Counted from the first letter of the stretch, positions 3,274 to 23,064 are shown. The stretch is DNA of 36,733 nucleotides from an uncultured Bacilli bacterium (GCA_944372485.1 CALVZI010000074.1:1-36733), one strand, 5' to 3'. Notes: a model not told the origin generated them from the letters alone. Translations and numbers: made by a program.

Positions 3274-3857
3274 CGAACTTTTGCCAGAATTATATAAAAA
3301 CCTTTATTTTTTTTAACTATTTCTACGTTATAGTCTTTTTCTAAATCTTTAGCAACACTTTTAGCTCCTTGATTCTTATTTATTACTAACCAAAGTTCAC
3401 CATTTTCTTTTAAATGTTCCTTCGCTCCAAATAATAAATCATATAAAATTTTCTTTCCTACCCTAATTGGTGGATTAGTTATTATATAATCATATTTTTT
3501 TAAAACATTACTATAACCATTACTCTCAAAAACGTTAACAGATACATTATTTTTAGAAGCATTCATTTTAGCCAAATGAAGACTTCTTAAATTAATATCA
3601 ATCATATCAACATTTGCATTAGTATTGTCTTTAACAGTAATACCAATCGGTCCATAACCACATCCTAAATCAAGAACATCACCACTTATTTTATTAATTG
3701 GAATTGTTTCAATTAAAGTACGTGTTCCAAAATCTAATCCTTGTTTAGAAAAAACTCCATGATCAGTAATAAACGTATAACTTTTATTTAAAATATTTAT
3801 TTTGTGCTCTTGCCACTCACTTTTTAAATTCTTATCATTTTCAAAATAATGACTCAT
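3270..3857 (-). CDS. ybxB: class I SAM-dependent methyltransferase, RsmC/YbxB-like (probable rRNA m2G methyltransferase)
   Basis: 195 aa. SAM motif I is VLDLGCGYGPIG and the N-methyltransferase motif is IITNPPIRVG (NPPxH-like). It sits between rplL and rpoB, as ybxB does in Bacillus. Confidence 0.8.
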   Translation of the reverse strand: MSHYFENDKNLKSEWQEHKINILNKSYTFITDHGVFSKQGLDFGTRTLIETIPINKISGDVLDLGCGYGPIGITVKDNTNANVDMIDINLRSLHLAKMNASKNNVSVNVFESNGYSNVLKKYDYIITNPPIRVGKKILYDLLFGAKEHLKENGELWLVINKNQGAKSVAKDLEKDYNVEIVKKNKGFYIILAKVR

Positions 3858-3885
3858 AAATCACATCCTAAATTGTATCTTTATT

Positions 3886-3921
3886 AAACGACGAAAACCT
3901 ATACCGTTTAGTATAGGTTTC
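3886..3921 (-). terminator. rho-independent terminator/attenuator after rplL
   Basis: 10-bp stem 3895-3904 / 3911-3920 (AAACCTATAC / GTATAGGTTT) with a 6-nt loop. On the minus strand the stem runs into TTTTCGTCGTTT. Confidence 0.6.
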
Positions 3922-3935
3922 TTTCATTGATTCAA

Positions 3936-4301
3936 TTATTTTAATTCAATAGTAGCTCCAGCTTCTTCGAATTTAGCTTTTAATTCATTAGCTTCATCCA
4001 TAGAAACATTTTCTTTAACGTTACCACCGTTATCAGCGATTTCTTTAGCTTCTTTTAATCCTAAACCAGTTACTTCACGAACTAATTTGATAACAGCTAA
4101 TTTAGAAGCACCAGCACTTGTTAAAACAACAGTTGCAGTTGATGGTCCTTCTTCAGTTGCAGCAGCAGCTGGAGCAGCTACAGCAACAGCACTTGGATCT
4201 ACACCAAATTCTTCTTTCATTAAATCTACTACTTCTTTAATTTCTAAAAGTGACATTTCTTTTAGTGAATCAATAATTTCTTTAGCACTTAATTTTGCCA
4301 T
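3936..4301 (-). CDS. rplL: 50S ribosomal protein L7/L12
   Basis: 121 aa: MAKLSAKEIIDSLKEMSLLEIKE..., Ala-rich hinge AVAVAAPAAAATEE, C-terminal KLVREVTGLGLKEAKE...EEAGATIELK. Confidence 0.97.
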   Translation of the reverse strand: MAKLSAKEIIDSLKEMSLLEIKEVVDLMKEEFGVDPSAVAVAAPAAAATEEGPSTATVVLTSAGASKLAVIKLVREVTGLGLKEAKEIADNGGNVKENVSMDEANELKAKFEEAGATIELK

Positions 4302-4824: not shown

Positions 4825-4966
4825 GTTACACCTCCTTAAATTTATGAGAGTACCATATAAAAGGTTCCTACAACCGCAGGAACCTATTCTAAACATATTA
4901 TAGAATTTGTTGCCTCGGTAGGAAATATTAAGCCTAAGCTCCTACTGTCTACGGTACGTCTTTCAT
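4825..4966 (-). promoter_or_regulatory. ribosomal protein L10 leader (rplJL autoregulatory 5' UTR) with attenuator hairpin
   Basis: ~140-nt unusually G+C-rich untranslated region between the promoter and rplJ. Internal hairpin GTAGGA...TCCTAC. Terminator-like hairpin AGGTTCCT GCGGTTGT AGGAACCT (4862-4885) followed by TTTTATAT on the minus strand. The location matches the Bacillota L10 leader (Rfam RF00557); no covariance model was run. Confidence 0.65.
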
Positions 4967-4972
4967 GTATAC

Positions 4973-6189: not shown

Positions 6190-6283
6190 GAAAAACACCT
6201 CCTATTAATTTTCGTGAGTGGTCATATCGAGTGTCCGCTATCCACTTTTTCTCTCCCACTTCCTATGTATAAAAACACATAGC
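6190..6283 (-). promoter_or_regulatory. structured rplK 5' leader, possible second L1-responsive element
   Basis: Minus strand 6260-6214: AGUGGGAGAGAAAAAGUGGAUAGCGGACACUCGAUAUGACCACUCAC. It shares GUGGGAG and UAUGACC with the rplA-proximal element. AGUGG/CCACU can close a long irregular hairpin. Confidence 0.35.
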
Positions 6284-6289
6284 GAGTAC

Positions 6290-6318
6290 ATAATAACACA
6301 TTTTATGCTTTTTGTAAA
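6290..6318 (-). promoter_or_regulatory. sigma-A-type promoter for rplKA
   Basis: Minus strand: TTTACA (6318-6313), 17 nt, TATTAT (6295-6290) preceded by TGT. Confidence 0.6.
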
Positions 6319-6322
6319 TACT

Positions 6323-6901
6323 TTATTTTATTTTTCTTAAAGCTTTTATTATTTCATCATCTAATTCTTTATTATCATCAATATATTGTTCTAACTCTTG
6401 TATCTGCTGTTCTAATACCTTTTTTTGATTTTTCAAATCAAACACTTTAGCTTGTTTCTCTTTTGCTTCATACAATTTTTTTATTTGAAAACATAACTTT
6501 CGATCACTTTGATTTATTTTTTTAGTAGTATCTGGTTTCTTTAAAACATCCCAGACAGTTTTATTTTTAAAATTTTTTATATCTGGATTAAAACCATTTA
6601 AATACCCAAAATATAGAAATGGAGCAATTCTTCCAGTATAATCATCACTTTCTATAACTGTATGCATATATGTATCACCATACATATTAGTTCTTTTATT
6701 AATATTCATTCCATGTTTTATAGCATAATTTAAAAGTATTAATAAATCTTCTTCACTAAAACCAGCATATACAGCTTCTTCAAAAATAGAACAATCATCT
6801 TCTGTTTCTAAATTCCAATCAATATTATAAATATTTTTAAATCCTAATTTAGTCATTAATTTTTTTACCTTATTTTTATCATTATTTATTATATTCAACA
6901 T
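6323..6901 (-). CDS. hypothetical protein, ankyrin-repeat-like N-terminal half plus C-terminal coiled coil
   Basis: Likely start is MLNIINN (6901), 7 nt after GAAGGA; the track start at 6916 has no RBS. ANK-like repeats: ...LLILLNYAIKHGMNINKRTNMYGDTYMHTVIE... and ...YLNGFNPDIKNFKNKTVWDVLKK (compare G-TPLH...GADxN). The C-terminus (KEKQAKVFDLKNQKKVLEQQIQELEQYIDDNKELDDEII) is heptad-like. Confidence 0.45.
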   Translation of the reverse strand: MLNIINNDKNKVKKLMTKLGFKNIYNIDWNLETEDDCSIFEEAVYAGFSEEDLLILLNYAIKHGMNINKRTNMYGDTYMHTVIESDDYTGRIAPFLYFGYLNGFNPDIKNFKNKTVWDVLKKPDTTKKINQSDRKLCFQIKKLYEAKEKQAKVFDLKNQKKVLEQQIQELEQYIDDNKELDDEIIKALRKIK

Positions 6902-6931
6902 AGTACCATCCTTCATTATAATTTATTTTTT

Positions 6932-7802
6932 TTATTCACAATCATCATATTCAAATTCTTCCACATAATCATTAATTGGTTTATTTATATGCAAAAATTT
7001 AACTTTTTTATCTTTTAAGTACATACAATAATGTTCATAACCTTCATTCTCTTTAGAAACTTTATAAAGAAGAATATTATCATTTATTATTCTATTATAT
7101 AAAGTTAATCTTTTAAATTCAAAATTTTTAGGATGAACTTCTAATATGTTTTTTAAAGAAAATAAAATCAAATCACTTGCTTCTTTTAATCCTAAATTAT
7201 TAAAATTAGAATAATCTTTAATAAAATTAAATATTTCATTTAATTTTTCTTCGCCTAATTCTTGCTCATTTAATATTTCTTTTTTTATAATTTTAAATAT
7301 TCTAAATACAATTTTTGATTTGTATACCCAATTTTTAATAACGTATGTTCTTCTAAATAATCTTTTTTCTCATTATCCTTTATTCTAACAGCATCAAATT
7401 TTAACCCTTTTTTGACATTAAAGAAATCGTTTGTATAGCTAACTGGATCAATCTCTATATGAGTTCCATCTTTTAAAGAAGTTATAGAATAAGCATGTCC
7501 AATTTTACCTTAAAATAAAGTAAGATCATAATTTGGATCATTAGATAATAGTATATCAGCAACCATAGCATATGCCCTACTAAAACTTGTACATACTACC
7601 CTTACATCTCTAACATCAAAAACATTTATTTCTTTATTAAATATTTTTTCCGTAAATTGCTAATCATAAAAACCCCATAGCCATCTATGATCATATTGTA
7701 ATTCTTCACACATTCTTTTAACAATATAATATATTTTATCAATAATTGATGCATTTTTTATTTTGAATCAATTTCTTCTTCTAACATACTTAATAAATCC
7801 AT
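6932..7802 (-). pseudogene. decayed transglutaminase-like (Cys-His-Asp) cysteine peptidase-fold gene
   Basis: ATG at 7802 lies behind GAGGTGA and a TGT-TATAAT -10 (7833-7825). The frame is broken near the A-run at 7754-7763, by an in-frame TAG (7660-7662), by an in-frame TAA (7510-7512), and by a second frameshift at an A7 run (7280-7286). The 79-aa track ORF (6932-7171) is its C-terminal remnant. The conceptual product contains VRVVCTSFSRAYAM...(34 aa)...GHAYSITSLKDGTHIEIDP, giving transglutaminase-core spacing. Confidence 0.6.
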
Positions 7803-7854
7803 AGAGTCACCTCAATTGCGCTATATTATAACACATCCAATTATATAATCAAAA

Positions 7855-10680
7855 TTACTTAAATTTCTTTTTTAAGCTTAATTCATATTCCTGGTAAGCC
7901 CTAGGATCATAACTAAAAATACCCGAATATTCTTTATTATCAGAAGTTTTATAGTGATACCAACCATTTCCTACTTCTCCTTCTTTAATTGAATCTAATG
8001 GTGTTTCTTTTCCAATCAAAGCATTTATAATTTGAATATGTTGTTTAACGTTTTTATTGTCTATATTATTAATTTGTTTTACTTTAGATCTACTATCTAA
8101 ATATATGTTATTGGTATTAATATAATTATCTTTAGTTAAAAACGATAGTTCTTGATGCAAAACAACTTGTTGTCCACCTGCATCTGTATATATTTTCGGC
8201 AATAAATCTTTTAATTTATTTTTTACGAAAACAATATTTTCTCTTTTATCCAACTTAATATATTTATTTAACGAGCTAATTTTAACATCTCGAGAATTCC
8301 TTCCTAAAGTAATCATTTTTATTCTTTCAGTTTCATTCTCCTTATAAAATGACTCTTTATAAATCTCTTCTGTTGCTTTTAAATAACAATTAAACCATTC
8401 ATCAACATTTTTTTGTTCATTTTTTATACACTCTATATTATCAAAACAAACAACATTTCCATTTCGCCATACCCAACTTTGAGCAATTAAGACATTATCT
8501 TTCCACACACAAAAAATACGATTATCAGGATTTAACATTGTATAATGAACCGCAGTCTTAGCATGCCCATCAATTCTAAAACAACAATTAGTTAGTTTTC
8601 CAACTGCTAAAGCAAGTGGATCATTTGTATTTAACATTTCATAATGATAACCATTATATTCTCCTTTTACTTGCGGTATAGTTGCATAATAACGCATTTT
8701 CATATCAAGATAATATTTTTTTATATTAGAAATAGCTAAATCACTATTTCCAATATAAAATAAGTAAGGCTTCAAATCAAAATATTCTATTCCTATATCA
8801 TATGATTGAAATAATTGTTTTTCAACAAATGATTTTATCATTGAAAGAGAGAGTTTTTGACTAGGATAAAATTTAATAATTTTATCCCAATTATTATAAA
8901 TATTGGCGAAATTTTTTACAATAATATTTTCTGCATTTAATTTTTTTAAAACTCCATTTTCTTTCCCAAAAAATAAATTAATTAATTTTTGATTATATTC
9001 AATTTTTCCATCTTTAGAAATTTTTATTTTAGATTTATCTATACTATCAAACAATAATTCCATTATTCTATAGTCATACTGACATTCATTTAAGATTTTC
9101 TTTAACTTATCAAAAGGAAAAACCATCAAACCACATAATAACAACTGAGAATATGTACTATGATTTCCAAAATCAGAAATGACATACGTACTAACACCAT
9201 TAACACCATTATATTTAACCCTATTCCAATAATCTTTAATAATTTTTAAATATTCCTTAGCATTAATGGCCATTATTTGTTTTAATTTAAAATCATCAAT
9301 GGCTCCCATTTCAATATTAAAACGTTTATGTACACATAATTCTAACTCATTATTAAAATATAATAGTTTACAAAGCGGAAAGCCATTAATACATCTTTTA
9401 TAATATATCCTTAAAATTTTCTTAAAATATTCTTCATCGTCCTTTATAGTAATATATTCTATAAGATCATGTAATAATAATTGATAACCAAAATCAAACA
9501 ATTCTTTATTATTATGCTTATTTAAATATGCCAATAATTTAATGTAATCATCACAAAAAATTGTATTAATATTTTTTATTTTTTCTAATGTTATATCTTC
9601 TTTTTTTAATTTTTTTTCTAATAATTCAAAATATTTGAGATATTCAAAATAATCATTGTTGTGCAAATAATTAGTAATTTCTTTATAATTTCCTTTTGTT
9701 TCTAAATAATATCTAATTAGTGGTGCTTGGCTAATCGTATTTTTTAAAATAATTTTTTTTATATTTTCATTATCAAGTATTTTAGAGATTAAGAAAGGAT
9801 ATTTTTTTAATATATCAACTTTTTCTTTTACCAATATGTTAAAAAAGGGCATAAATAAGGTAATACCATAGTCTAAATTTTCATTTACAAATAAATATTT
9901 ATAATACTTTTTAAAAAACAAATCCATTGTTATTAAATTACCAGTATACCCTACATATTTATCGATTTTTTCAAACTTCAATAATTTTTGTTTTATTTTT
10001 TCATCATATTTATTTAATAAAGATAATCCTTCATTTGTATCTTTTTTCATAAATATTTTGTGCATGATTTCCGATAAACTTATTCTTTCTTCATTTAATT
10101 CTTTTATATTGTTAAGTAAATCATCAAGAACTCCATTTTCATAAATCGCATCTAAATATTGATTTTTTTCTTTATTTTTATTTAAATCACTCTTTGAATA
10201 AAAATTATTAATAGCCAAAATATAATCATTTGTTTTTTGATAATTTATTTTTAAATGATACTCTTCTAATAATTTAATTTTTTCATCTAAAGTTAAACAT
10301 CTAGATTCAGCAATAGTTTTTTCTTTAGCGAATTTTAATATATTAATATTTTTATCAATTAAAAATTTTATAGAATCATAATATAAACAATCAATTACAC
10401 TTTTATGACTTAAGTCTATACTATTAAGAAATCCTTGGATTATAGTTAAATTATCCTTTATATTATCTTTAAAAAAGTTTAATTGTTCCTCTCTTGTACT
10501 AATTTTTAATAATTTATAAAAAACAGAAATATTAATATCTCTTAAATCAATATTTTGTAACTTCAAATTAGAATCAATTTCACTATTATCAAAATCAATA
10601 ATATTAGTTAAAGTTGTAATATCTTCAAATTCAATTAATTTAACAATTAAGTTATCAATATAATAACTAGTTTTTGGCAT
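7855..10680 (-). CDS. large hypothetical protein, paralogue A (941 aa): diverged helical N-terminal ~650 aa plus conserved C-terminal Cys/His domain
   Basis: Intact 941-aa ORF with AAAGGTGGTGA RBS. No signal peptide or TM segment is visible. The C-terminal block YYATIPQVKGEYNGYHYEMLNTNDP...GKLTNCCFRIDGHAKTAVHYTMLNP.NRIFCVWKDN...AQSWVWR.GN..CFDNIECIK is almost invariant with the neighbouring paralogue. Confidence 0.85.
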   Translation of the reverse strand: MPKTSYYIDNLIVKLIEFEDITTLTNIIDFDNSEIDSNLKLQNIDLRDINISVFYKLLKISTREEQLNFFKDNIKDNLTIIQGFLNSIDLSHKSVIDCLYYDSIKFLIDKNINILKFAKEKTIAESRCLTLDEKIKLLEEYHLKINYQKTNDYILAINNFYSKSDLNKNKEKNQYLDAIYENGVLDDLLNNIKELNEERISLSEIMHKIFMKKDTNEGLSLLNKYDEKIKQKLLKFEKIDKYVGYTGNLITMDLFFKKYYKYLFVNENLDYGITLFMPFFNILVKEKVDILKKYPFLISKILDNENIKKIILKNTISQAPLIRYYLETKGNYKEITNYLHNNDYFEYLKYFELLEKKLKKEDITLEKIKNINTIFCDDYIKLLAYLNKHNNKELFDFGYQLLLHDLIEYITIKDDEEYFKKILRIYYKRCINGFPLCKLLYFNNELELCVHKRFNIEMGAIDDFKLKQIMAINAKEYLKIIKDYWNRVKYNGVNGVSTYVISDFGNHSTYSQLLLCGLMVFPFDKLKKILNECQYDYRIMELLFDSIDKSKIKISKDGKIEYNQKLINLFFGKENGVLKKLNAENIIVKNFANIYNNWDKIIKFYPSQKLSLSMIKSFVEKQLFQSYDIGIEYFDLKPYLFYIGNSDLAISNIKKYYLDMKMRYYATIPQVKGEYNGYHYEMLNTNDPLALAVGKLTNCCFRIDGHAKTAVHYTMLNPDNRIFCVWKDNVLIAQSWVWRNGNVVCFDNIECIKNEQKNVDEWFNCYLKATEEIYKESFYKENETERIKMITLGRNSRDVKISSLNKYIKLDKRENIVFVKNKLKDLLPKIYTDAGGQQVVLHQELSFLTKDNYINTNNIYLDSRSKVKQINNIDNKNVKQHIQIINALIGKETPLDSIKEGEVGNGWYHYKTSDNKEYSGIFSYDPRAYQEYELSLKKKFK
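7858..8035. repeat. near-identical 3'-terminal coding block, copy 1 (partner 10789-10966)
   Basis: Hand alignment at a constant offset of 2931 nt gives 7 mismatches in 178 nt with no indels. The flanking gene sequence is much more diverged. Confidence 0.9.
8467..8718. repeat. highly conserved catalytic-domain-like coding block, copy 1 (partner 11413-11664)
   Basis: Hand alignment at an offset of 2946 nt gives 18 mismatches in 252 nt with no indels. The block encodes YYATIPQ...NCCFRIDGH...SWVWR. Confidence 0.85.
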
Positions 10681-10706
10681 AAATCACCACCTTTAAAATT
10701 TCAAAT

Positions 10707-10715
10707 ATTATATCA
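10707..10715 (-). promoter_or_regulatory. extended -10 promoter of paralogue A
   Basis: Minus strand TGA-TATAAT (10715-10707). The -35 is weak (TTTTCT). The 5' UTR aligns with that of paralogue B. Confidence 0.45.
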
Positions 10716-10743
10716 CATTAAACTATTAAAGAAAAACTTTTTC

Positions 10744-10767
10744 CCATGCTTTCTCTATTTCTATAAA
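10744..10767 (-). other. 24-nt relic resembling the 3' end of nusG, between the two paralogues
   Basis: Plus strand 10744-10767 (CCATGCTTTCTCTATTTCTATAAA) versus nusG end 13706-13729 (CTATGCTTTCTCAATTTCTGTAAG): 20 of 24 identical. Confidence 0.4.
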
Positions 10768-10785
10768 AATTATTTTGACACAAAA

Positions 10786-13638
10786 CTATTTAAATTTCTT
10801 TTTTAAGCTTAATTCATATTCCTGGTAAGCTCTAGGATCATAACTAAAAATACCCGAATATTCTTTATTATCAGAAATTTTATAGTGATACCAACCATCT
10901 CCTATTTCTCCTTCTTTAATTGAATCTAATGGTGTTTCTTTACCAATTAAAGCATTAATACTTATAATTTTATCTTTTATTCTTTTTAGTAATAAAATAT
11001 CATTACTTATTTTAGATATATTCTGAATTTTAGACCTTTTATCTAAATAAATATTATGGCACTCTTTACTGTTTTTCTTTACTGTGAAACATGGTTCTTT
11101 ATATAAAACTATCTGTTCATATATTGAATCAGTATAAATCTTCTTTATTTCATTAGGTATTTCACTAGTTGGAATTAACATTTCTTCTTTATTTTTAATA
11201 TTTTCATAAGATTTAAGTTGCTCAATTACAACATCTTTAGGATTTCTTCCTAACGTAATCATTTTTATATGTTCTAATTCATTCTCTTTTTTTAATGAAT
11301 CTGTATAAATCTTTTTAGCAGCTTCTAAATAACATTCTCCCCAAATATTAGCATTTGCAACTTCTTTTTTTATACATTCAATATTATCAAAACACAAATA
11401 ATTTCCTTTTCTCCATACCCAACTTTGAGCAACTAATTCATTATCCTTCCACACACAAAAAATACGATTATTTGGATTTAACATTGTATAATGAAGTGCA
11501 GTTTTAGCATGCCCATCAATTCTAAAACAGCAATTAGTTAGTTTTCCAACTGCTAAAACAAAAGGATCATTTGTATTTAACATTTCATAATGATAACCAT
11601 TAAATTCTCCTTTTACTTGTGGTATAGTTGCATAGTAACGCATTTTCATATCTAAATAATATTTATCTAAAATTTCAAATACTTCTTTATCATTATTAAT
11701 TTTCTCATTACAAATAATATAATATAAATAATCTTTAAGATCATTATATTGAGGTGGTAGCTTTTCATCAACAAAGAATTTTTCTTTAACAAAATTTTTT
11801 GCCATTTTTAAAGATATATTTTTAGTTTTATAAAATTTTATAATATCATCCCAATAATTATAAATATATGTAAAATAAATTACTAAATCATTATTATTAT
11901 CTAAAGACTTAAATTTTTGATTATTTTTAAAAATTAAATTAATCATTTTTTTATTATAAATAATTTTATTACCATCAATTATAACTTTATTTATATCAAT
12001 ATCTTTAAATAATTTTTTTATGATTACAATAAAATTATCATCTATATTATCTAATATTATTTTTAATTTATCATAAGGAAATACTAACAAACCTTTTAAT
12101 ATAAAATACTCAAAATCATCTTTATTTTCAATTTTATATTTAGATTCATACTTTTTAATTATTTTTAGATATTCTTTAGCATTAATAACTTTTATTTTTT
12201 TTATATCACAAATATCAGCAACAGCAAATTCTTTTTTAAATTTTTGATGAATATTAAGTTCAATTTCATCATTAAAATATAATAACTTACTTAAAGGAAA
12301 CCCATTAATACAATTTTTATAATATAACTTCATTAGTCCTTCATATTCTTCTTCATTGTCTTTTACTTTAACAAATTTTTTTATATCTTTTATAAATATT
12401 TTGTAACCAAAATCATACACTTCTTTATTATCATGAGTATTTAAGTACGACAATAATTTAATATAATCATTAGAATATATTGTTTTAATATTTTTTATTT
12501 CTTTTAAAGATATTTCTTTATTTCTTAAATTTTTTTCTAACTTTAAAAAATAATTAAAATAAATATTATAATAATATTCATCTAAACATAAAGCAATATC
12601 TTTAAAATCAGCTTTATTTTCTAAAAAATATTTACAAATTGGTAAATTATAATTAAAATTTTCCATAATTATTTTTTTTATTTCTAAGCTATCTAAATTT
12701 TTTAAAGAAAACAAAGGGTAATATTTTAAAATATCTTCACCTCTTTGTAAAACCCTATTAAAAAATGGAATATAAAATTTCATAGCGTATTCTAAATTAT
12801 TTTCTGTAAATATAATATTAGTATACTTTTTCATAAATAATTTAATTAATTCAAAATTTTTATAATTAAATAAATTTTCATTAAAAGTTTCATGATTTAA
12901 TAATCTTTTTATTATTTCTTCGTTGTATTTATTTAATAATTTAATTCCATCATTTTTATATTCTTGTCTAAATATTTTATATAAGATATCATTTAAACTA
13001 ATTCTTTTTTGATTTAAACTTTTTATATGCTTAAACATTTCCTCTAGTTCATACTCACTATATGTATCTTGTGCGAAATAATAATTTTTATTTATTTTAA
13101 AATCACTTGACTCTAATTGAATAAATATTTCGTTCATTTTATCCTTTTCTTCTTGGCTGTAATAATCTAAAATCAAATTAATAATATCAGCAACTGTTTG
13201 ATAATCAACTTTTAAATAATAATTTTCTAATAAAGCAATTTTTTCTTGTAAAGTTATACCATCAGACTTGGCAATAGATTCTCTAGGAACGATATCAAGC
13301 AAATTTATACCATTTTCAATTAAATAAACAATTGTATCATAATACAAAACGTAAAATAAACTTTCCTTTTCAAGACTACAAATTTTAAATAGTTTTTCAA
13401 AGATTTCTGAATGTTGATTAATATTCTTTTTAAAGAAAGATAATTGTTCTTCTCTATTACTATTTTTTAATGCATTATAAAAATTATTGATATTTAAATT
13501 ATTAACATCAATATTTTCTAATTTAATTGTTTCATCAACATTTCCATTAAATTGAACTAACTGAGAAAGAGAATGAATGTCAATTTTTTCCATTATAAAT
13601 TTTAATATTTCTTTTTGTATATCTAATTTTTTTGGCAT
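10786..13638 (-). CDS. large hypothetical protein, paralogue B (950 aa), same architecture as 7855-10680
   Basis: Intact 950-aa ORF with AGAAGGTGA RBS. It is collinear with paralogue A over its whole length. By eye the N-terminus is ~40% identical, and the last 57 aa differ at 3 positions. Confidence 0.85.
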   Translation of the reverse strand: MPKKLDIQKEILKFIMEKIDIHSLSQLVQFNGNVDETIKLENIDVNNLNINNFYNALKNSNREEQLSFFKKNINQHSEIFEKLFKICSLEKESLFYVLYYDTIVYLIENGINLLDIVPRESIAKSDGITLQEKIALLENYYLKVDYQTVADIINLILDYYSQEEKDKMNEIFIQLESSDFKINKNYYFAQDTYSEYELEEMFKHIKSLNQKRISLNDILYKIFRQEYKNDGIKLLNKYNEEIIKRLLNHETFNENLFNYKNFELIKLFMKKYTNIIFTENNLEYAMKFYIPFFNRVLQRGEDILKYYPLFSLKNLDSLEIKKIIMENFNYNLPICKYFLENKADFKDIALCLDEYYYNIYFNYFLKLEKNLRNKEISLKEIKNIKTIYSNDYIKLLSYLNTHDNKEVYDFGYKIFIKDIKKFVKVKDNEEEYEGLMKLYYKNCINGFPLSKLLYFNDEIELNIHQKFKKEFAVADICDIKKIKVINAKEYLKIIKKYESKYKIENKDDFEYFILKGLLVFPYDKLKIILDNIDDNFIVIIKKLFKDIDINKVIIDGNKIIYNKKMINLIFKNNQKFKSLDNNNDLVIYFTYIYNYWDDIIKFYKTKNISLKMAKNFVKEKFFVDEKLPPQYNDLKDYLYYIICNEKINNDKEVFEILDKYYLDMKMRYYATIPQVKGEFNGYHYEMLNTNDPFVLAVGKLTNCCFRIDGHAKTALHYTMLNPNNRIFCVWKDNELVAQSWVWRKGNYLCFDNIECIKKEVANANIWGECYLEAAKKIYTDSLKKENELEHIKMITLGRNPKDVVIEQLKSYENIKNKEEMLIPTSEIPNEIKKIYTDSIYEQIVLYKEPCFTVKKNSKECHNIYLDKRSKIQNISKISNDILLLKRIKDKIISINALIGKETPLDSIKEGEIGDGWYHYKISDNKEYSGIFSYDPRAYQEYELSLKKKFK
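10789..10966. repeat. near-identical 3'-terminal coding block, copy 2 (partner 7858-8035)
   Basis: See partner: 171 of 178 nt identical. Confidence 0.9.
11413..11664. repeat. highly conserved catalytic-domain-like coding block, copy 2 (partner 8467-8718)
   Basis: See partner: 234 of 252 nt identical. Confidence 0.85.
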
Positions 13639-13666
13639 AATTTCACCTTCTTAAATTTTTTCAGTT

Positions 13667-13675
13667 ATTATAACA
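13667..13675 (-). promoter_or_regulatory. extended -10 promoter of paralogue B
   Basis: Minus strand TGT-TATAAT (13675-13667), immediately after the nusG terminator. No good -35. Confidence 0.45.
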
Positions 13676-13684
13676 CATAAACTC

Positions 13685-13715
13685 AAAAAAAAGAAAGCAT
13701 ATACACTATGCTTTC
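13685..13715 (-). terminator. rho-independent terminator of secE-nusG
   Basis: 9-bp stem GAAAGCATA / TATGCTTTC (13693-13701 / 13707-13715) with a 5-nt loop, followed on the minus strand by T8 (13692-13685). The stem includes the nusG TAG stop. Confidence 0.8.
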
Positions 13716-14239
13716 TCAATTTCTGTAAGAGCTAACTCAACAGTTGTTTCTTGACCAAATAAGTCAATGATTACTTCTAATTGTTGATGTTCAAAATCAA
13801 TCTTCTTAACAGTACCAATCATACCTTGGAATGGTCCAGAAATAACTTTTACTTTATCATCTTCTTTTAATTCATTACCTAAATCAAGACGACTCATTCC
13901 CATGCTTCCTAAAATATGATCTACTTCTTCTGGTGTTAGTGGGAATGGTTTAGCACCTTTACCACTAGAACCAATAAATCCTGTAACACCTGGTGTATTA
14001 CGTACAATAAACCATGCTTCATCAGTCATAACCATTTCAACTAAAATATAACCTGGAAACATTTTTACATTTTTTTCTTTTTCTTTTCCATCTTTTGTTT
14101 CAATTACTTTTTGTTCAGGAACGACTACACGATAAATATAATCTTCCATTCCCATTGAACTTGCTCGCATCTCTAACTTTTCTTTTACTTTATTCTCGTG
14201 ACCTGAATAAGTATTAACTACATACCATTCTTTTTGCAT
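13706..14239 (-). CDS. nusG: transcription termination/antitermination factor NusG
   Basis: 177 aa: MQKEWYVVNTYSGHENKVKEKLE... NGN domain, C-terminal KOW (VKVISGPFQGMIGTVKKID). The ATG overlaps the secE stop (TAATG). Confidence 0.96.
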   Translation of the reverse strand: MQKEWYVVNTYSGHENKVKEKLEMRASSMGMEDYIYRVVVPEQKVIETKDGKEKEKNVKMFPGYILVEMVMTDEAWFIVRNTPGVTGFIGSSGKGAKPFPLTPEEVDHILGSMGMSRLDLGNELKEDDKVKVISGPFQGMIGTVKKIDFEHQQLEVIIDLFGQETTVELALTEIEKA

Positions 14240-14437: not shown

Positions 14438-14486
14438 AAAATAAAAACACTATCTCGTGTTACCCGTAATATAACACAAAATAGTG
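14438..14486 (-). terminator. terminator hairpin of the upstream orphan gene, interleaved with the secE promoter
   Basis: Minus strand: CACTAT TTT GTGTTA TATTACGG TAACAC GAG ATAGTG (14486-14448) followed by TTTTTATTTT. Confidence 0.5.
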
Positions 14487-14496
14487 TCTATGTCAA
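14468..14496 (-). promoter_or_regulatory. sigma-A-type promoter for secE-nusG
   Basis: Minus strand: TTGACA (14496-14491) immediately after the TAA stop at 14497-14499, 17 nt, TATATT (14473-14468) preceded by TGT. Confidence 0.6.
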
Positions 14497-15210
14497 TTAT
14501 TTTTTATAAATTAAATTATAATAATCATTATTTTTATTTTCACTAAAGTATGTTTTATATTTTTTTAGCATAGAAATTATTTCTTCAGAACTATATAACT
14601 TAAAGAAATTTTCCACTCTTATATCACTAATTACTTTTTTTCCAACTAATCGAATGTGATTTTGTATATCATATTCTGGTAAATTAATTTTATCATTTCC
14701 ATAAACATCAAAAACAGCTTTATCTTTTTTATTTCCACAAACAATTTGCATAAATTCACATTCATCTTTTAAGAAATATTTTGTATAACCTTTTTCAATA
14801 TCTATAGCATCAACTAAACTATCAATATTAATGTTAGGATATGTTTTTCCAAAGTTTATCAACTTAATTAACATGATATCTAACTTTTGATTTTTTAATT
14901 CATAAACTTTACGTGGATTATAATGATATTTTAAATATCCCTTTTTATATCCACCAAAAATATTTTGTAATTCTTTAGGAATATTAATTTTTATTCCTCC
15001 GTCAAAATAAATTTTAGTTCCACCTTTTTTCTTATCAAATAAATCATTAGCAAAATTCTCATCAAGATTAATTTTTTTAGCTTGTTTTAAAGAATATTTT
15101 TTAATTTCACTCATATAATTCTTTACTATATTGTTAGTATAATCTAACGTTAATAAAGATTCTAATTCAATTAGTATATCATTATAAAATTCTATATATG
15201 CTAAATTCAT
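14497..15210 (-). CDS. hypothetical protein (237 aa), no recognisable domain
   Basis: The track ORF (to 15264) includes the promoter. The real start is MNLAYIEFYND at 15210, 6 nt after GGAGGGG. It has its own promoter and terminator. Confidence 0.7.
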   Translation of the reverse strand: MNLAYIEFYNDILIELESLLTLDYTNNIVKNYMSEIKKYSLKQAKKINLDENFANDLFDKKKGGTKIYFDGGIKINIPKELQNIFGGYKKGYLKYHYNPRKVYELKNQKLDIMLIKLINFGKTYPNINIDSLVDAIDIEKGYTKYFLKDECEFMQIVCGNKKDKAVFDVYGNDKINLPEYDIQNHIRLVGKKVISDIRVENFFKLYSSEEIISMLKKYKTYFSENKNNDYYNLIYKK

Positions 15211-15235
15211 AAAATCCCCTCCTCTATGAGGTACT

Positions 15236-15264
15236 ATTTTATTCTTTTTATTATTTTTTGTCAA
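15236..15264 (-). promoter_or_regulatory. sigma-A-type promoter of the 237-aa orphan
   Basis: Minus strand: TTGACA (15264-15259), 17 nt, TAAAAT (15241-15236). Confidence 0.6.
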
Positions 15265-21717: not shown

Positions 21718-22003
21718 TTATCATCACCGGAACTTCTATAAAATCACCTACACTATGTGGAATATTACTTTTAAATTTATTAAAATCAGTAGTGTCTACA
21801 TCATCATCACTACGTAATTTACATCCTTCAAAAGCAGGTGTAACTAAAACATCTTCACTAATATCATTTATATCTTTAATCTTTTCTACATCATCTAATA
21901 ATTGTTTTAATGAAATTTGATATTTTTCAATTTCATCTTCACTTACTGCAATACGTGCAAGACGTGCAACGTGTAATACTTCTTCTTTACTAAGTTTTTC
22001 CAT
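21710..22003 (-). CDS. gatC: Asp/Glu-tRNA amidotransferase subunit C
   Basis: 97 aa: EEVLHVARLARIAVSEDEIEKY... First gene of gatCAB. Confidence 0.92.
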   Translation of the reverse strand: MEKLSKEEVLHVARLARIAVSEDEIEKYQISLKQLLDDVEKIKDINDISEDVLVTPAFEGCKLRSDDDVDTTDFNKFKSNIPHSVGDFIEVPVMINE

Positions 22004-22023
22004 AAAATTCCTCCAATATATTA

Positions 22024-22032
22024 ATTATACCA
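22024..22032 (-). promoter_or_regulatory. extended -10 promoter for gatCAB
   Basis: Minus strand TGG-TATAAT (22032-22024), about 20 nt upstream of the gatC RBS GGAGGAA. Confidence 0.45.
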
Positions 22033-22049
22033 TGTTTTTTAGAATAAAA

Positions 22050-22073
22050 GAAAAAAAGAATATTTTTTATTCT
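22050..22073 (-). terminator. terminator after yqeH
   Basis: AGAATA AAAAA TATTCT hairpin (22057-22073) followed on the minus strand by T7 (22056-22050). The stem is weak and AT-only. Confidence 0.4.
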
Positions 22074-22074
22074 C

Positions 22075-23064
22075 TTAATTCTGTTTACCTATTAAAGATT
22101 TTCTTGTAAAAACTTTAACTTTCTCATCTATATCTAAATATATAGTACATGGTTCCATTATTCTAATAAAACCTAAACCTAATATTACAATATCAGTATT
22201 TTTTTTATCAATTACAATTTTTCGTTTATTATAATTATTAATTTCTTTATATACCCTTTTAATATTTAAACTATTAGACATATATATAGTTAAATTAGTA
22301 TTACTAACTTCCATATTACAAATACTATCAATTAATATTGTTTGCTTATTTTTTATTTGATAAGTAATTGGCTTAATTTCTTTTTTAGGAATAATCTTTT
22401 TTATTAAAGTGTTATCTAAATAATCAATTATATTACCACTTTCTAAGATACCAGGAGTATCTAAAAGTATTAAATCATCTAATAAAGGAACCTCAATTGT
22501 ATTTAGTGTAGTTGAAGTAAGAATACTTGTTGTTATTTCTAAATCAAGATTACTATAATGTTTAATTAAATGATTAATCATAGTTGATTTACCAGCATTA
22601 GTAAATCCTACGACGTATACATTTTTACTTTTCTTATATTTATTTATTTTTTCTAATAATAAATCAAAATTATAATTTTTAAGACTACTAATAATTATTT
22701 TATCTACATAATTTAATTTATAATTATCAATATATTTATTTATATTTTCATCATAAATAGATTTAGGTAAAATATCTCGTTTTGTTAAAACTAAAAGAAC
22801 TTCATTATTAATATTATTTGTAATTATATCTAAATTTTGTGGTAAATTAAATAAATCTAATACCAGAACAACTAAATCTTTTGTATTATTAATATCTTTT
22901 AAAATAGGTATAAAATCTTCATTAGTTTTACTAACTTGTTTATATTCATTATAATGTTTAATTCGAAAACATCTTTCACATAAATTACCATTATTTTTAA
23001 TATATCCCTCTTTAGATACATCACTATTTTGTAAAACAGCCCCACACCCAATACACTTATTCAT
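22075..23064 (-). CDS. yqeH: ribosome biogenesis GTPase YqeH (circularly permuted)
   Basis: N-terminal zinc ribbon CIGCGAVLQ...CERCF. Permuted GTPase motif order: TKRD (G4), GFTNAGKST (G1), DTPG (G3). Follows yqeG as in Bacillus. Confidence 0.88.
   Translation of the reverse strand: MNKCIGCGAVLQNSDVSKEGYIKNNGNLCERCFRIKHYNEYKQVSKTNEDFIPILKDINNTKDLVVLVLDLFNLPQNLDIITNNINNEVLLVLTKRDILPKSIYDENINKYIDNYKLNYVDKIIISSLKNYNFDLLLEKINKYKKSKNVYVVGFTNAGKSTMINHLIKHYSNLDLEITTSILTSTTLNTIEVPLLDDLILLDTPGILESGNIIDYLDNTLIKKIIPKKEIKPITYQIKNKQTILIDSICNMEVSNTNLTIYMSNSLNIKRVYKEINNYNKRKIVIDKKNTDIVILGLGFIRIMEPCTIYLDIDEKVKVFTRKSLIGKQN

Follow-up and report, generated by a model that had tools for sequence, protein, structure and literature searches.

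Genes and signals between nusG and rplK

The subject of this analysis is a 36.7-kb window (GCA_944372485.1, CALVZI010000074.1:1-36733; the whole stretch of DNA that was analysed, 36,733 nucleotides) from an uncultured, RF39-like gut Bacilli species with a G+C (GC) content of roughly 25%. Within this window, nusG and rplK are separated by an island that comprises two large paralogous genes, designated bigA and bigB, a dead gene, and a small ankyrin-like gene, o197. The interval (6323-13705; 7.4 kb) is very probably a strain-variable accessory cassette, in the evolutionary sense of the term, bounded by the nusG stop codon on one side and the rplK -35 box on the other. With open reading frames (ORFs) read in translation table 11, the island and its flanking genes all lie on the minus strand, in the transcription order secE-nusG-terminator-bigA-bigB-dead gene-o197-rplK promoter-rplK. 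This ORF and domain annotation bears out the gene order and coordinates given in a preliminary description made from the sequence alone. The features of the locus are listed below in the order of transcription.

14418-14239, minus strand: secE
14239-13706, minus strand: nusG
13691..13717, minus strand: intrinsic terminator (11-bp stem followed by a T-run), overlapping the nusG stop codon; left edge of the island
13667..13677, minus strand: extended -10 element TGTGTTATAAT upstream of bigA
13638-10786, minus strand: bigA, 950 amino acids (aa), defined by its ORF, the alignment with its paralogue, and an AlphaFold model
11089..11637, minus strand: predicted GNAT-fold core of bigA (residues ~668-850), which holds family-invariant residues
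10707..10717, minus strand: extended -10 element TGTGATATAAT upstream of bigB
10680-7855, minus strand: bigB, 941 aa, divergent tandem paralogue of bigA
8143..8691, minus strand: predicted GNAT-fold core of bigB (residues ~664-846)
7825..7835, minus strand: extended -10 element TGTGTTATAAT upstream of the dead gene
7802-6932 (approximate), minus strand: dead gene, broken ORFs (pseudogene of a 299-aa protein family)
6916-6323, minus strand: o197, 197 aa, ankyrin-like
6290..6318, minus strand: rplK promoter (TTTACA, 17 nt, TATTAT, with an upstream TG); right edge of the slot
6198-5764, minus strand: rplK

The island fits exactly between the nusG stop codon and the rplK -35 box, and it carries its own terminator. 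The latter, previously described as strong, does possess an 11-bp stem and a T-run at 13717-13691, and four terminator-like sites are observed in the region, compared with 0.8 expected from shuffled sequences. Relatives with an empty site lack this post-nusG terminator, and a divergent allele of the island (contig L005, described below) has a different one. At the other edge, the rplKA promoter is found where it had been placed (6290-6318) and is kept in every relative inspected. The extended -10 motif TGTGNTATAAT occurs three times in the 36.7-kb window versus 0.44 expected, each copy sitting directly 5' of one gene (bigA, bigB or the dead gene). No such element precedes o197, whose sole TATAAT abuts its ribosome-binding site; this gene is probably carried by the transcript of the preceding unit, driven from the -10 element at 7825..7835. 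Since o197 lacks an extended -10 of its own, the island holds three promoter-bearing units (bigA, bigB and the dead gene) rather than the four proposed earlier. A generic scan for sigma-70 -35/-10 promoters was uninformative in this AT-rich DNA, returning 94 matches against 87 expected, which is the chance level.

Variation at the junction among species and strains

To place the island in a wider context, species-representative genomes were scanned with NusG, and 80 loci were retrieved (best match 89% NusG identity). All of them belong to metagenome-assembled genomes of uncultured gut 'Bacilli', 'Tenericutes' or 'Bacillota' (Ca. Fimihabitans, Ca. Coprosoma, CAG:822/884), a group that we take to be RF39-type. 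RF39-like Bacilli are uncultured, poorly annotated bacteria with small genomes, commonly found in the guts of humans and animals. In the 76 loci holding both genes, the nusG-rplK gap measures 110-260 bp in most species, which confirms that the junction is normally tight, and at empty sites the rplK -35 box lies ~15-70 nt after the nusG stop codon. The big genes are absent from all 80 representatives retrieved, in keeping with the earlier view of the cargo as lineage-specific. About 14 of the related species carry other, unrelated cargo in this gap. The gap widens to 570-980 bp in approximately 11 loci, nine of which were inspected; in every one of these nine, a single unrelated ORF of 155-283 aa starts a few bases past nusG. 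In three further loci the gap reaches 1.8-3.2 kb and contains three paralogous membrane proteins (L069), a DUF4116-repeat protein (L070, scanned with Pfam and PADLOC and matching DUF4116), or an ORF6N protein, a Ham1 NTPase and two unknowns (L007). The ORF6N protein of L007, the nearest species representative, matches the PADLOC defence candidate PDC-S05 (E=1.6e-94), the one strong candidate match among 10 slot-cargo proteins tested against PADLOC. In this lineage, the nusG-rplK junction is a slot that has repeatedly received insertions, and no relevant paper on nusG/rplK islands was found in a search of the literature.

Several small ORFs near nusG accompany this pattern. Single extra ORFs begin 3-27 nt after nusG in L010, L011, L012, L019, L027, L032, L035, L041, L044 and L063, and they are probably co-transcribed with nusG because no terminator intervenes. 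They represent several unrelated families, with a YQNSPYY motif common to L032, L044 and L063 and a YRLSIQ motif common to L011 and L012; those of L010, L011, L027 and L032, scanned against PADLOC only, gave no match. In addition, a small basic ORF (...FYxYEEGxKVxVSKxxYxIPxSL...) overlaps or abuts the nusG stop codon in L001 (9135-9290), L002 (9029-9439) and L007 (10534-10755). It is kept in these three lineages despite their differing cargo, and is absent from the window and L005.

At the strain level, close homologues of the big proteins number seven among 5.8 billion proteins. Where genomic context is visible, five of the six closest lie at or beside the nusG site (L001, L002, L004, L005 and P0003, the last apparently being the bigB copy of L004), and the sixth, L006, is on a 3.1-kb contig with uninformative flanks. 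Comparison of L005 with the window shows flanks that are 99.5-100% identical through o255 (the gene upstream of secE), secE and nusG, falling to ~70% immediately past nusG. The big gene of L005 is a mosaic relative to the window: identity is ~70% in its 5' part, rises to 89-94% centrally and drops to 63-75% in its 3' part, before returning to 96.5% at the rplK promoter. This allele has one big gene, two partner genes in the opposite order, and the third gene intact. In L004 the relation is reversed: nusG differs from that of the window at 23 of 534 nt (proportion of differing synonymous sites, pS, 0.17), and bigB at 7 of 2766 nt (pS 0.004). Such discordant histories of flank and island in L005 and L004 are the hallmark of allele exchange by homologous recombination.

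The 3' ends of the two alleles merit a separate remark. Two different genes, the transglutaminase-like gene in L005 (6349-6377, protein end ...IKALEKNE) and o197 in the window (6323-6351, protein end ...IKALRKIK), are homologous over their last ~28 nt, and this homology is continuous with the shared flank at the rplK promoter. Recombination within the 3' end of an o197-type gene is thereby suggested as the event that shuffled the gene order.

Further alleles were found by looking up contigs that encode the exact NusG protein of the window, and these display at least four slot states. L174 has the allele of the window (99% nt identity). In L173 and L175, a 112-aa N-terminal stump of the big gene is fused into the rplK promoter; this is a deletion scar, as short homology with the right-hand end of an allele of the L005 type is seen at the point of fusion. 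Stumps of 88 and 81 aa are present in L178 and L181, respectively, and in L177 an 88-aa stump is followed by an IS481-type transposase (HTH_28/29, LZ_Tnp_IS481, partial rve). The insertion sequence (IS) in L177 spans 3383-4220. In L178 (3383-3411), 'gaaaaattgaataa' is repeated on both sides of a 41-bp remnant, a pattern suggestive of a footprint left by the IS seen in L177 or of its collapse during assembly. These stumps, rearrangements and losses among contigs with identical NusG indicate that the cassette is dispensable and is turning over within the population. The island is replaced, rearranged or deleted there, as would be expected of the accessory locus that had been proposed.

A sister lineage represented by L001 and L002 (flanks ~74-86% identical in nucleotide sequence) has a related big gene together with a homologue of o197 in this position, and this type of cargo has therefore not recently arrived. 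Within the window, bigA and bigB form a tandem duplication with a period of ~2.93 kb, and their 3' 206 nt are 90% identical, which points to gene conversion. Alleles at the slot turn over through homologous recombination via the conserved flanks, through duplication in tandem accompanied by gene conversion, and through deletions at short homologies; in one strain, an IS insertion has contributed as well. Regarding mobility machinery, no tRNA was detected in the window by ARAGORN, no direct repeats were found flanking the island, and no island ORF tested had a Pfam match to an integrase or transposase. The earlier statement that such machinery is lacking is accordingly correct for the island of the window; it does not extend to the slot overall, given the IS481-type transposase of another strain.

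An alternative explanation is that the island is a recently acquired foreign genomic island, brought in by an unrecognised mobile element. The island has 15-24% GC, compared with 30-35% in rpoB and the ribosomal protein genes, and is absent from the 80 species representatives; moreover, relatives of the dead gene occur at the edge of a conjugative element (L170), one member of the big-protein family lies on a contig with a Mob_Pre relaxase, and the slot of another strain contains the transposase mentioned above. However, GC at third codon positions (GC3) is 0.10-0.13 in island genes versus 0.07-0.15 in the rest of the window, and the total GC of island genes (0.19-0.22; bigA 0.191, bigB 0.212) is equally low in core genes (yqeH 0.192, a yqeG-like HAD phosphatase 0.189) and likewise in ORFs o229, o325 and o255. 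The contrast with rpoB and rplK is confined to codon positions 1 and 2 and hence reflects amino-acid composition, with Phe, Tyr, Met, Ile, Asn and Lys making up 0.46-0.51 of island proteins versus ~0.3 in RpoB and ribosomal proteins. As the island genes do not differ from other genes in the window in GC3 or total GC, low GC is no sign of foreign origin, and the composition of the island is native, not recently imported. The 'ultra-AT-rich insert' of the preliminary description is indeed AT-rich, but not distinctively so, and its use of composition as a mark of a foreign insert fails on this per-gene comparison, an outcome that the description itself had named as contrary to its proposal. In a 25%-GC genome, a GC content below that of ribosomal genes should not be read as evidence of foreign origin. 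All 87 family loci fetched lie on contigs of similarly low GC (0.20-0.32), which looks like a native gene pool, and the homologous cargo at the same site in L001 and L002 (flanks ~75-86%) argues against recent arrival. Together with the lack of an integrase, tRNA or flanking repeats, and of any match in phage, plasmid or IMG/VR collections, these data make a recent foreign origin very unlikely.

Variable hotspots flanked by core genes have been described before. In Pseudomonas aeruginosa, cDHS1 and cDHS2 are core-gene-flanked 'core defense hotspots' with a median size of 26 kb, and cDHS1 is not obviously part of any one class of mobile element (PMC10250203). Like these hotspots, the nusG-rplK slot has fixed conserved flanks with cargo that differs between strains and species, and in a sister species it holds a defence-candidate gene. 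Unlike them, it spans 0.1-7.4 kb and lies in the secE-nusG/rplKAJL-rpoBC cluster, not beside a tRNA or tmRNA gene; one of its cargoes matches a defence candidate, itself not experimentally validated, and composition gives no signal. It also differs from a classical integrase-mediated island, having no recombinase domain, tRNA, flanking repeats or deviant composition. Core-gene-flanked variable hotspots (PMC10250203) and the GNAT fold are thus already known; what is new is the location of the slot inside this cluster, its active turnover without an integrase, and a large solenoid-GNAT family that lacks any annotation, bears an atypical signature and is partnered by an ankyrin or AAA protein. 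Even the most conserved bacterial gene cluster can hold an integrase-free, recombination-driven variable slot, which could serve as a strain marker and as a hunting ground for accessory systems in reduced genomes.

Contigs with identical NusG reveal two other strain-variable slots between core genes. A 352-aa Fic-domain gene lies between yqeH and gatC in L173 (1097-2155) and L174 (1191-2249), where a spacer of 70 bp is all that the window contains (22003-22075). The other slot is within the r-protein/rpoB cluster: a 352-aa ORF without a Pfam domain separates rplL from the methyltransferase gene in L173 (13390-14448) and L175 (4097-5155), and none occurs in the window (3857-3936).

The large proteins and their partners

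The linked cargo genes encode one or two cytoplasmic proteins of ~950 aa and a small partner of ankyrin-like character; a third member of the set is dead in the window. The two paralogues of ~945 aa reported earlier are the 950-aa bigA and 941-aa bigB products, which share 50% aa identity and have no Pfam match at E<=0.1 and no PADLOC, PHROG or NCBIfam match. An exhaustive HMMER search with a family profile identified 1,714 representative clusters (50% identity clusters) at E<=1e-3, including 167 at E<=1e-30. The part shared by the family is a ~300-residue core, which is also located near the C-terminus of proteins of 1,100-1,870 aa, eight of which were examined and contain no Pfam domain at all. 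Named members are solely 'hypothetical protein [Bacilli bacterium]', and the contigs of all 87 loci fetched are AT-rich and metagenomic. With no entry in Pfam, NCBIfam, PHROGs or PADLOC, the family belongs to the unannotated part of gut metagenomes. Members adjoining nusG or rplK are restricted to the clade of the window itself; none of 80 metagenome loci from the family profile, or of three from an alignment of the GNAT core (L087-L089), adjoins either gene. Several other family loci contain, after the big gene, a further family member of shorter length, an arrangement that resembles the tandem of the window.

A further neighbour was noted in a subfamily of 1,100-1,600 aa, in which the big gene is followed by a gene for a ~335-aa truncated ProA-like (gamma-glutamyl-phosphate reductase/aldehyde dehydrogenase) protein in 35 of the 87 loci (including L087-L089, L107, L109, L110, L113 and L116). 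In the locus checked (L088), the stop and start codons of the two genes overlap, and an acyltransferase-fold protein is in this way paired with a reductase-fold protein.

AlphaFold models of the large proteins are confident, with predicted local distance difference test (pLDDT) scores of 83.8 for the core, where most of the domain exceeds 90, and of 83.4 for bigA at full length. In the predicted model, residues ~1-650 form an all-alpha solenoid with a weak, low-probability likeness to HEAT/ARM proteins, residues ~668-850 form a GNAT-fold domain, and residues ~870-950 form a small alpha/beta domain. The core model displays the order beta1-alpha1-alpha2-beta2-beta3-beta4-alpha3-beta5-alpha4-beta6 of the GNAT fold, and in a Foldseek search against the Protein Data Bank (PDB) its best 50 matches were all GNATs (GCN5/PCAF, RimI), with E from 3e-4, probability 0.92-1.00, and target template modelling (TM) scores mostly of 0.45-0.6. 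GNATs again lead the structural matches of the full-length bigA model. The predicted fold of residues ~668-850 therefore resembles the GNAT superfamily, as represented by GCN5/PCAF, RimI and the Legionella effector VipF. Unlike GNATs, the big family lacks motif A and a GNAT Pfam match, has an invariant Cys in the alpha1-alpha2 region, and carries the domain fused to a ~650-residue alpha-solenoid and an extra C-terminal domain. GNAT models were not among the 25 most-matched Pfam families listed for 41 family members (E<=1), no NCBIfam match was obtained, and searches of PDB sequences with family profiles gave only spurious helical matches.

The invariant residues of the family in the GNAT part are P673, Y684, G698, C704, R725, S739, W740, W742, R743, C749, D751, E754 and Y770. 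C704 usually occurs as Cys-Cys (C703-C704). Judged by secondary-structure order, without superposition, D751 and E754 would fall at the end of beta4, the position of the catalytic Glu of GCN5. Both bigA and bigB retain all 25 family-invariant residues. This ~1,700-cluster family, with a GNAT-like fold and an unusual active-site signature, is brought to light by the present analysis.

Several other assignments were considered and rejected. An ADP-ribosyltransferase (R-S-E) reading, prompted by a Macro-domain neighbour in one distant locus (L003), was dropped because the predicted fold is that of a GNAT, and a papain-like Cys-His protease reading of the CC motif was excluded by the lack of an invariant His in the family. 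Membership of the PcfJ-like proteins was not upheld either, as there was one weak structural match (rank 9) and no PcfJ among the 25 Pfam families listed for 41 members; in the literature searched, 'PcfJ' was met only as a name of C. elegans plasmids. Among viral models in BFVD, the best match of bigA was an uncharacterised phage protein (A0A7G9A3X2, E=2e-10, query TM 0.50), and others included Orf137 of Lactobacillus phage LP65 and, at rank 9, the 'PcfJ-like' phage protein. Unlike what relatedness to those phage proteins would entail, bigA has no relation to them at the sequence level (no PHROG, PcfJ Pfam, phage-record or IMG/VR match). A phage or plasmid origin was likewise rejected, since tblastn searches with bigA and the core against phage and plasmid collections and an IMG/VR scan produced no match. 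Two isolated links to mobile elements were seen in the wider family: the distant member P0121 weakly matches hypothetical Microcystis phage proteins (26% identity), and another member is the one found beside Mob_Pre.

With regard to the partner gene, o197 has no Pfam match of its own, including the Ank models. It aligns with the N-terminal domain of AAA ATPases (E=7e-12 and 1e-9), and the N-terminal domain of the AAA protein of L003 matches Ank_4 (7e-8) and Ank_5 (4e-4). The C-terminal region of o197, judged by eye, resembles a coiled coil. Homologues of o197 accompany the big gene in the window, L001 and L005, and AAA genes with an o197-like N-terminus lie directly upstream of distant big homologues (~870-1,090 aa) in 6 of 20 subfamily loci, equivalent to three or four gene neighbourhoods. 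In L003, one of the six, a Macro-domain gene lies downstream as well, and the Ank-AAA and Macro neighbours there have weak PADLOC matches only (PDC-M72A, 5e-5; DarG, 3e-3). That an ankyrin-like module is linked to the big protein in contexts unrelated to each other supports the view that the two work as a pair.

The dead gene, which the preliminary description called a dead transglutaminase-like gene, is indeed broken: alignment with the intact 299-aa orthologue of L005, to which it is 48-50% identical, reveals two in-frame stop codons as well as one or more frameshifts. An alternative genetic code as the cause was excluded by the TAA stops together with the frameshift, the other genes being normal in table 11. 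The transglutaminase label could not be confirmed, there being no Pfam, NCBIfam or PDB match to such an enzyme. The intact L005 protein has no Pfam match apart from a weak one to DUF6761 and no NCBIfam, PADLOC, PHROG or PDB sequence match, its C...H...D spacing was seen by eye only, and none of the nine homologues of the family has a Pfam domain or annotation. Searches of PADLOC-DB v2 were negative for bigA, bigB, o197, the 299-aa protein and P0007. Homologues of the dead gene were also observed in two other settings, at the edge of the conjugative element of L170 (1524-10900, with TraG/VirD4, sortase, serine recombinase and NlpC/P60) and near WXG100/DUF4176 genes in L171 (5678-10885), and both adjoin the same chromosomal HTH/histidine-kinase genes.

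Possible roles of the cargo and further features of the window

The cargo genes are real and under some constraint, with an enzyme-like core that is conserved and an N-terminal region that is the most variable part. Among nusG-site alleles, the N-terminal 330 residues of the big proteins are 26-52% identical, compared with 52-80% for the GNAT core in the same comparisons. The ratio of nonsynonymous to synonymous differences per site (pN/pS) is 0.40 for bigA and 0.06 for nusG; that of bigB, 0.54, comes from only 7 differences, and among divergent big-gene alleles at ~50% aa identity synonymous sites are saturated.

These data bear on two non-adaptive or conventional explanations of the island. 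The first is that it is a decaying remnant, a group of leftover genes in a permissive slot that drift to loss without current function. The deletion scars of several strains would fit such decay, as would the pN/pS of 0.4-0.5 versus 0.06 for nusG. However, two intact ORFs of 941 and 950 aa persist in DNA of 19-21% GC, where stops arise easily, both copies keep every family-invariant residue, each unit retains a promoter and a ribosome-binding site, and linkage to the ankyrin-like partner is conserved across unrelated genomic contexts. Decay without function is therefore considered unlikely. The second is that the cargo is housekeeping or translation-linked, consisting of GNAT-type modifiers of ribosomal or transcription proteins that act in the manner of RimI/RimJ/RimL and are encoded beside the genes of their substrates. 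The position between nusG and rplKAJL, the presence of RimI among the structural matches, and homologues at the same site in at least two species-level lineages are compatible with this idea. Against it, the genes are missing from 76 related species and reduced to stumps of 81-112 aa in contigs with identical NusG, family members outside the clade of the window (80 plus three loci) are not near nusG or rplK, a terminator insulates the island from nusG and its genes have their own promoters, and the N-terminus is hypervariable between near-identical strains. A housekeeping role is accordingly quite improbable.

The preferred reading combines a variable cassette in a recombination slot with a functional interpretation of its cargo, and this combined statement is regarded as reasonably probable. 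The strain alleles at the slot support the earlier interpretation of these genes as a candidate accessory system in a conserved locus. In functional terms, the variable alpha-solenoid may recognise a macromolecular target or trigger, the GNAT-fold domain would transfer an acyl or aminoacyl group onto the target, and the ankyrin partner might regulate or neutralise this activity. Instead of serving a housekeeping purpose, the module could then take part in genetic conflict, either by defending against phages or mobile elements or as a system of the toxin/immunity type. Such a conflict role of the big protein module is proposed tentatively, on account of the hypervariable N-terminus between near-identical strains, the duplication and gene conversion together with gene decay and loss, the defence candidate in the same slot of the nearest species, and the AAA/STAND-like and Macro neighbours of distant homologues.

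Several findings weigh against this functional proposal. No component matches a known defence, toxin-antitoxin or immunity family in PADLOC and PHROG scans, and one slot cargo gene in other species has a defence-candidate match, most of the cargo being small unknown ORFs. The canonical Q/RxxGxG/A motif for the pyrophosphate of coenzyme A (CoA) is absent from the beta4-alpha3 junction of bigA and bigB, where the sequence after beta4 (CFDNIE) is variable and lacks GxG/A; the lone motif-A-like match, RIDGHA (bigA 706-711, bigB 702-707), occurs elsewhere, in the stretch from alpha1 to alpha2, and the wider family does not preserve it. In the absence of a canonical CoA motif, the core is termed a GNAT-fold domain of a new family. 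The pN/pS of 0.4-0.5 also fits relaxed constraint. The dead gene of the window and the apparent frameshift that splits the big gene of L001 could mean decay, and the big gene of L002 looks truncated, a point of little weight because it lies within 46 bp of the contig end.

Comparison with known toxins is also informative. The GNAT toxins TacT, AtaT and ItaT are ~170 aa long, keep the acetyl-CoA motif, and have ribbon-helix-helix or DUF1778 antitoxins encoded upstream. Like them, the big protein is an intracellular GNAT-fold protein encoded beside a small partner gene in a variable accessory locus; unlike them, it has 950 aa, and its partner is ankyrin-like and encoded downstream. Neither the big protein nor its partner matched toxin-antitoxin models in PADLOC, Pfam or NCBIfam. 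It is conceivable, although doubtful, that bigA/bigB and the ankyrin partner (standalone or AAA/STAND-fused) form an undescribed two-component conflict system of uncultured gut Bacilli, in which a hypervariable solenoid sensor would direct an atypical GNAT-fold transferase. This transferase would use a Cys and may not use CoA, its target would be a phage or host macromolecule, and the nusG-rplK junction would represent a dedicated integrase-free exchange slot for such systems. The conserved linkage of solenoid-GNAT and ankyrin/AAA components offers a concrete hypothesis that is open to testing by cloning.

The remaining features of the window are as follows. Downstream of rplK lie rplA, rplJ, rplL, a small methyltransferase gene and rpoB, with an ordinary Rfam L10_leader (RF00557, 78.6 bits) at 4847-4972 on the minus strand, 5' of rplJ, which confirms the operon annotation. 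Farther upstream are gatCAB, yqeH, yqeG, and genes for a class II aminoacyl-tRNA synthetase, a sigma-70-family sigma factor and recO. The leader between the rplK promoter and start codon (6199-6289, minus strand) contains a hairpin (gctat...atag) and AGTGGGAG...CCACTCGCGAAAA, followed by a ribosome-binding site, and the same element is found in L001, L005, L007-L009, L013, L014, L016, L018, L023, L059 and L067. An Rfam search with this leader gave no significant match (best E=0.27, ylbH); it could be an autoregulatory leader of the L1/L11 operon outside Rfam coverage. Upstream of secE, o255 (14497-15264, minus strand, 255 aa, 19.9% GC) has no Pfam, NCBIfam or PADLOC match and evolves rapidly between species, with 31-43% aa identity in L007, L001 and L002 and 100% in L005. 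A near-consensus promoter (TTGACA, 17 nt, TATATT, with TG) lies just 5' of secE at 14445-14496 on the minus strand and overlaps a 19-bp hairpin followed by a T-run, an arrangement that could act as an attenuator or regulatory structure of the secE-nusG unit.

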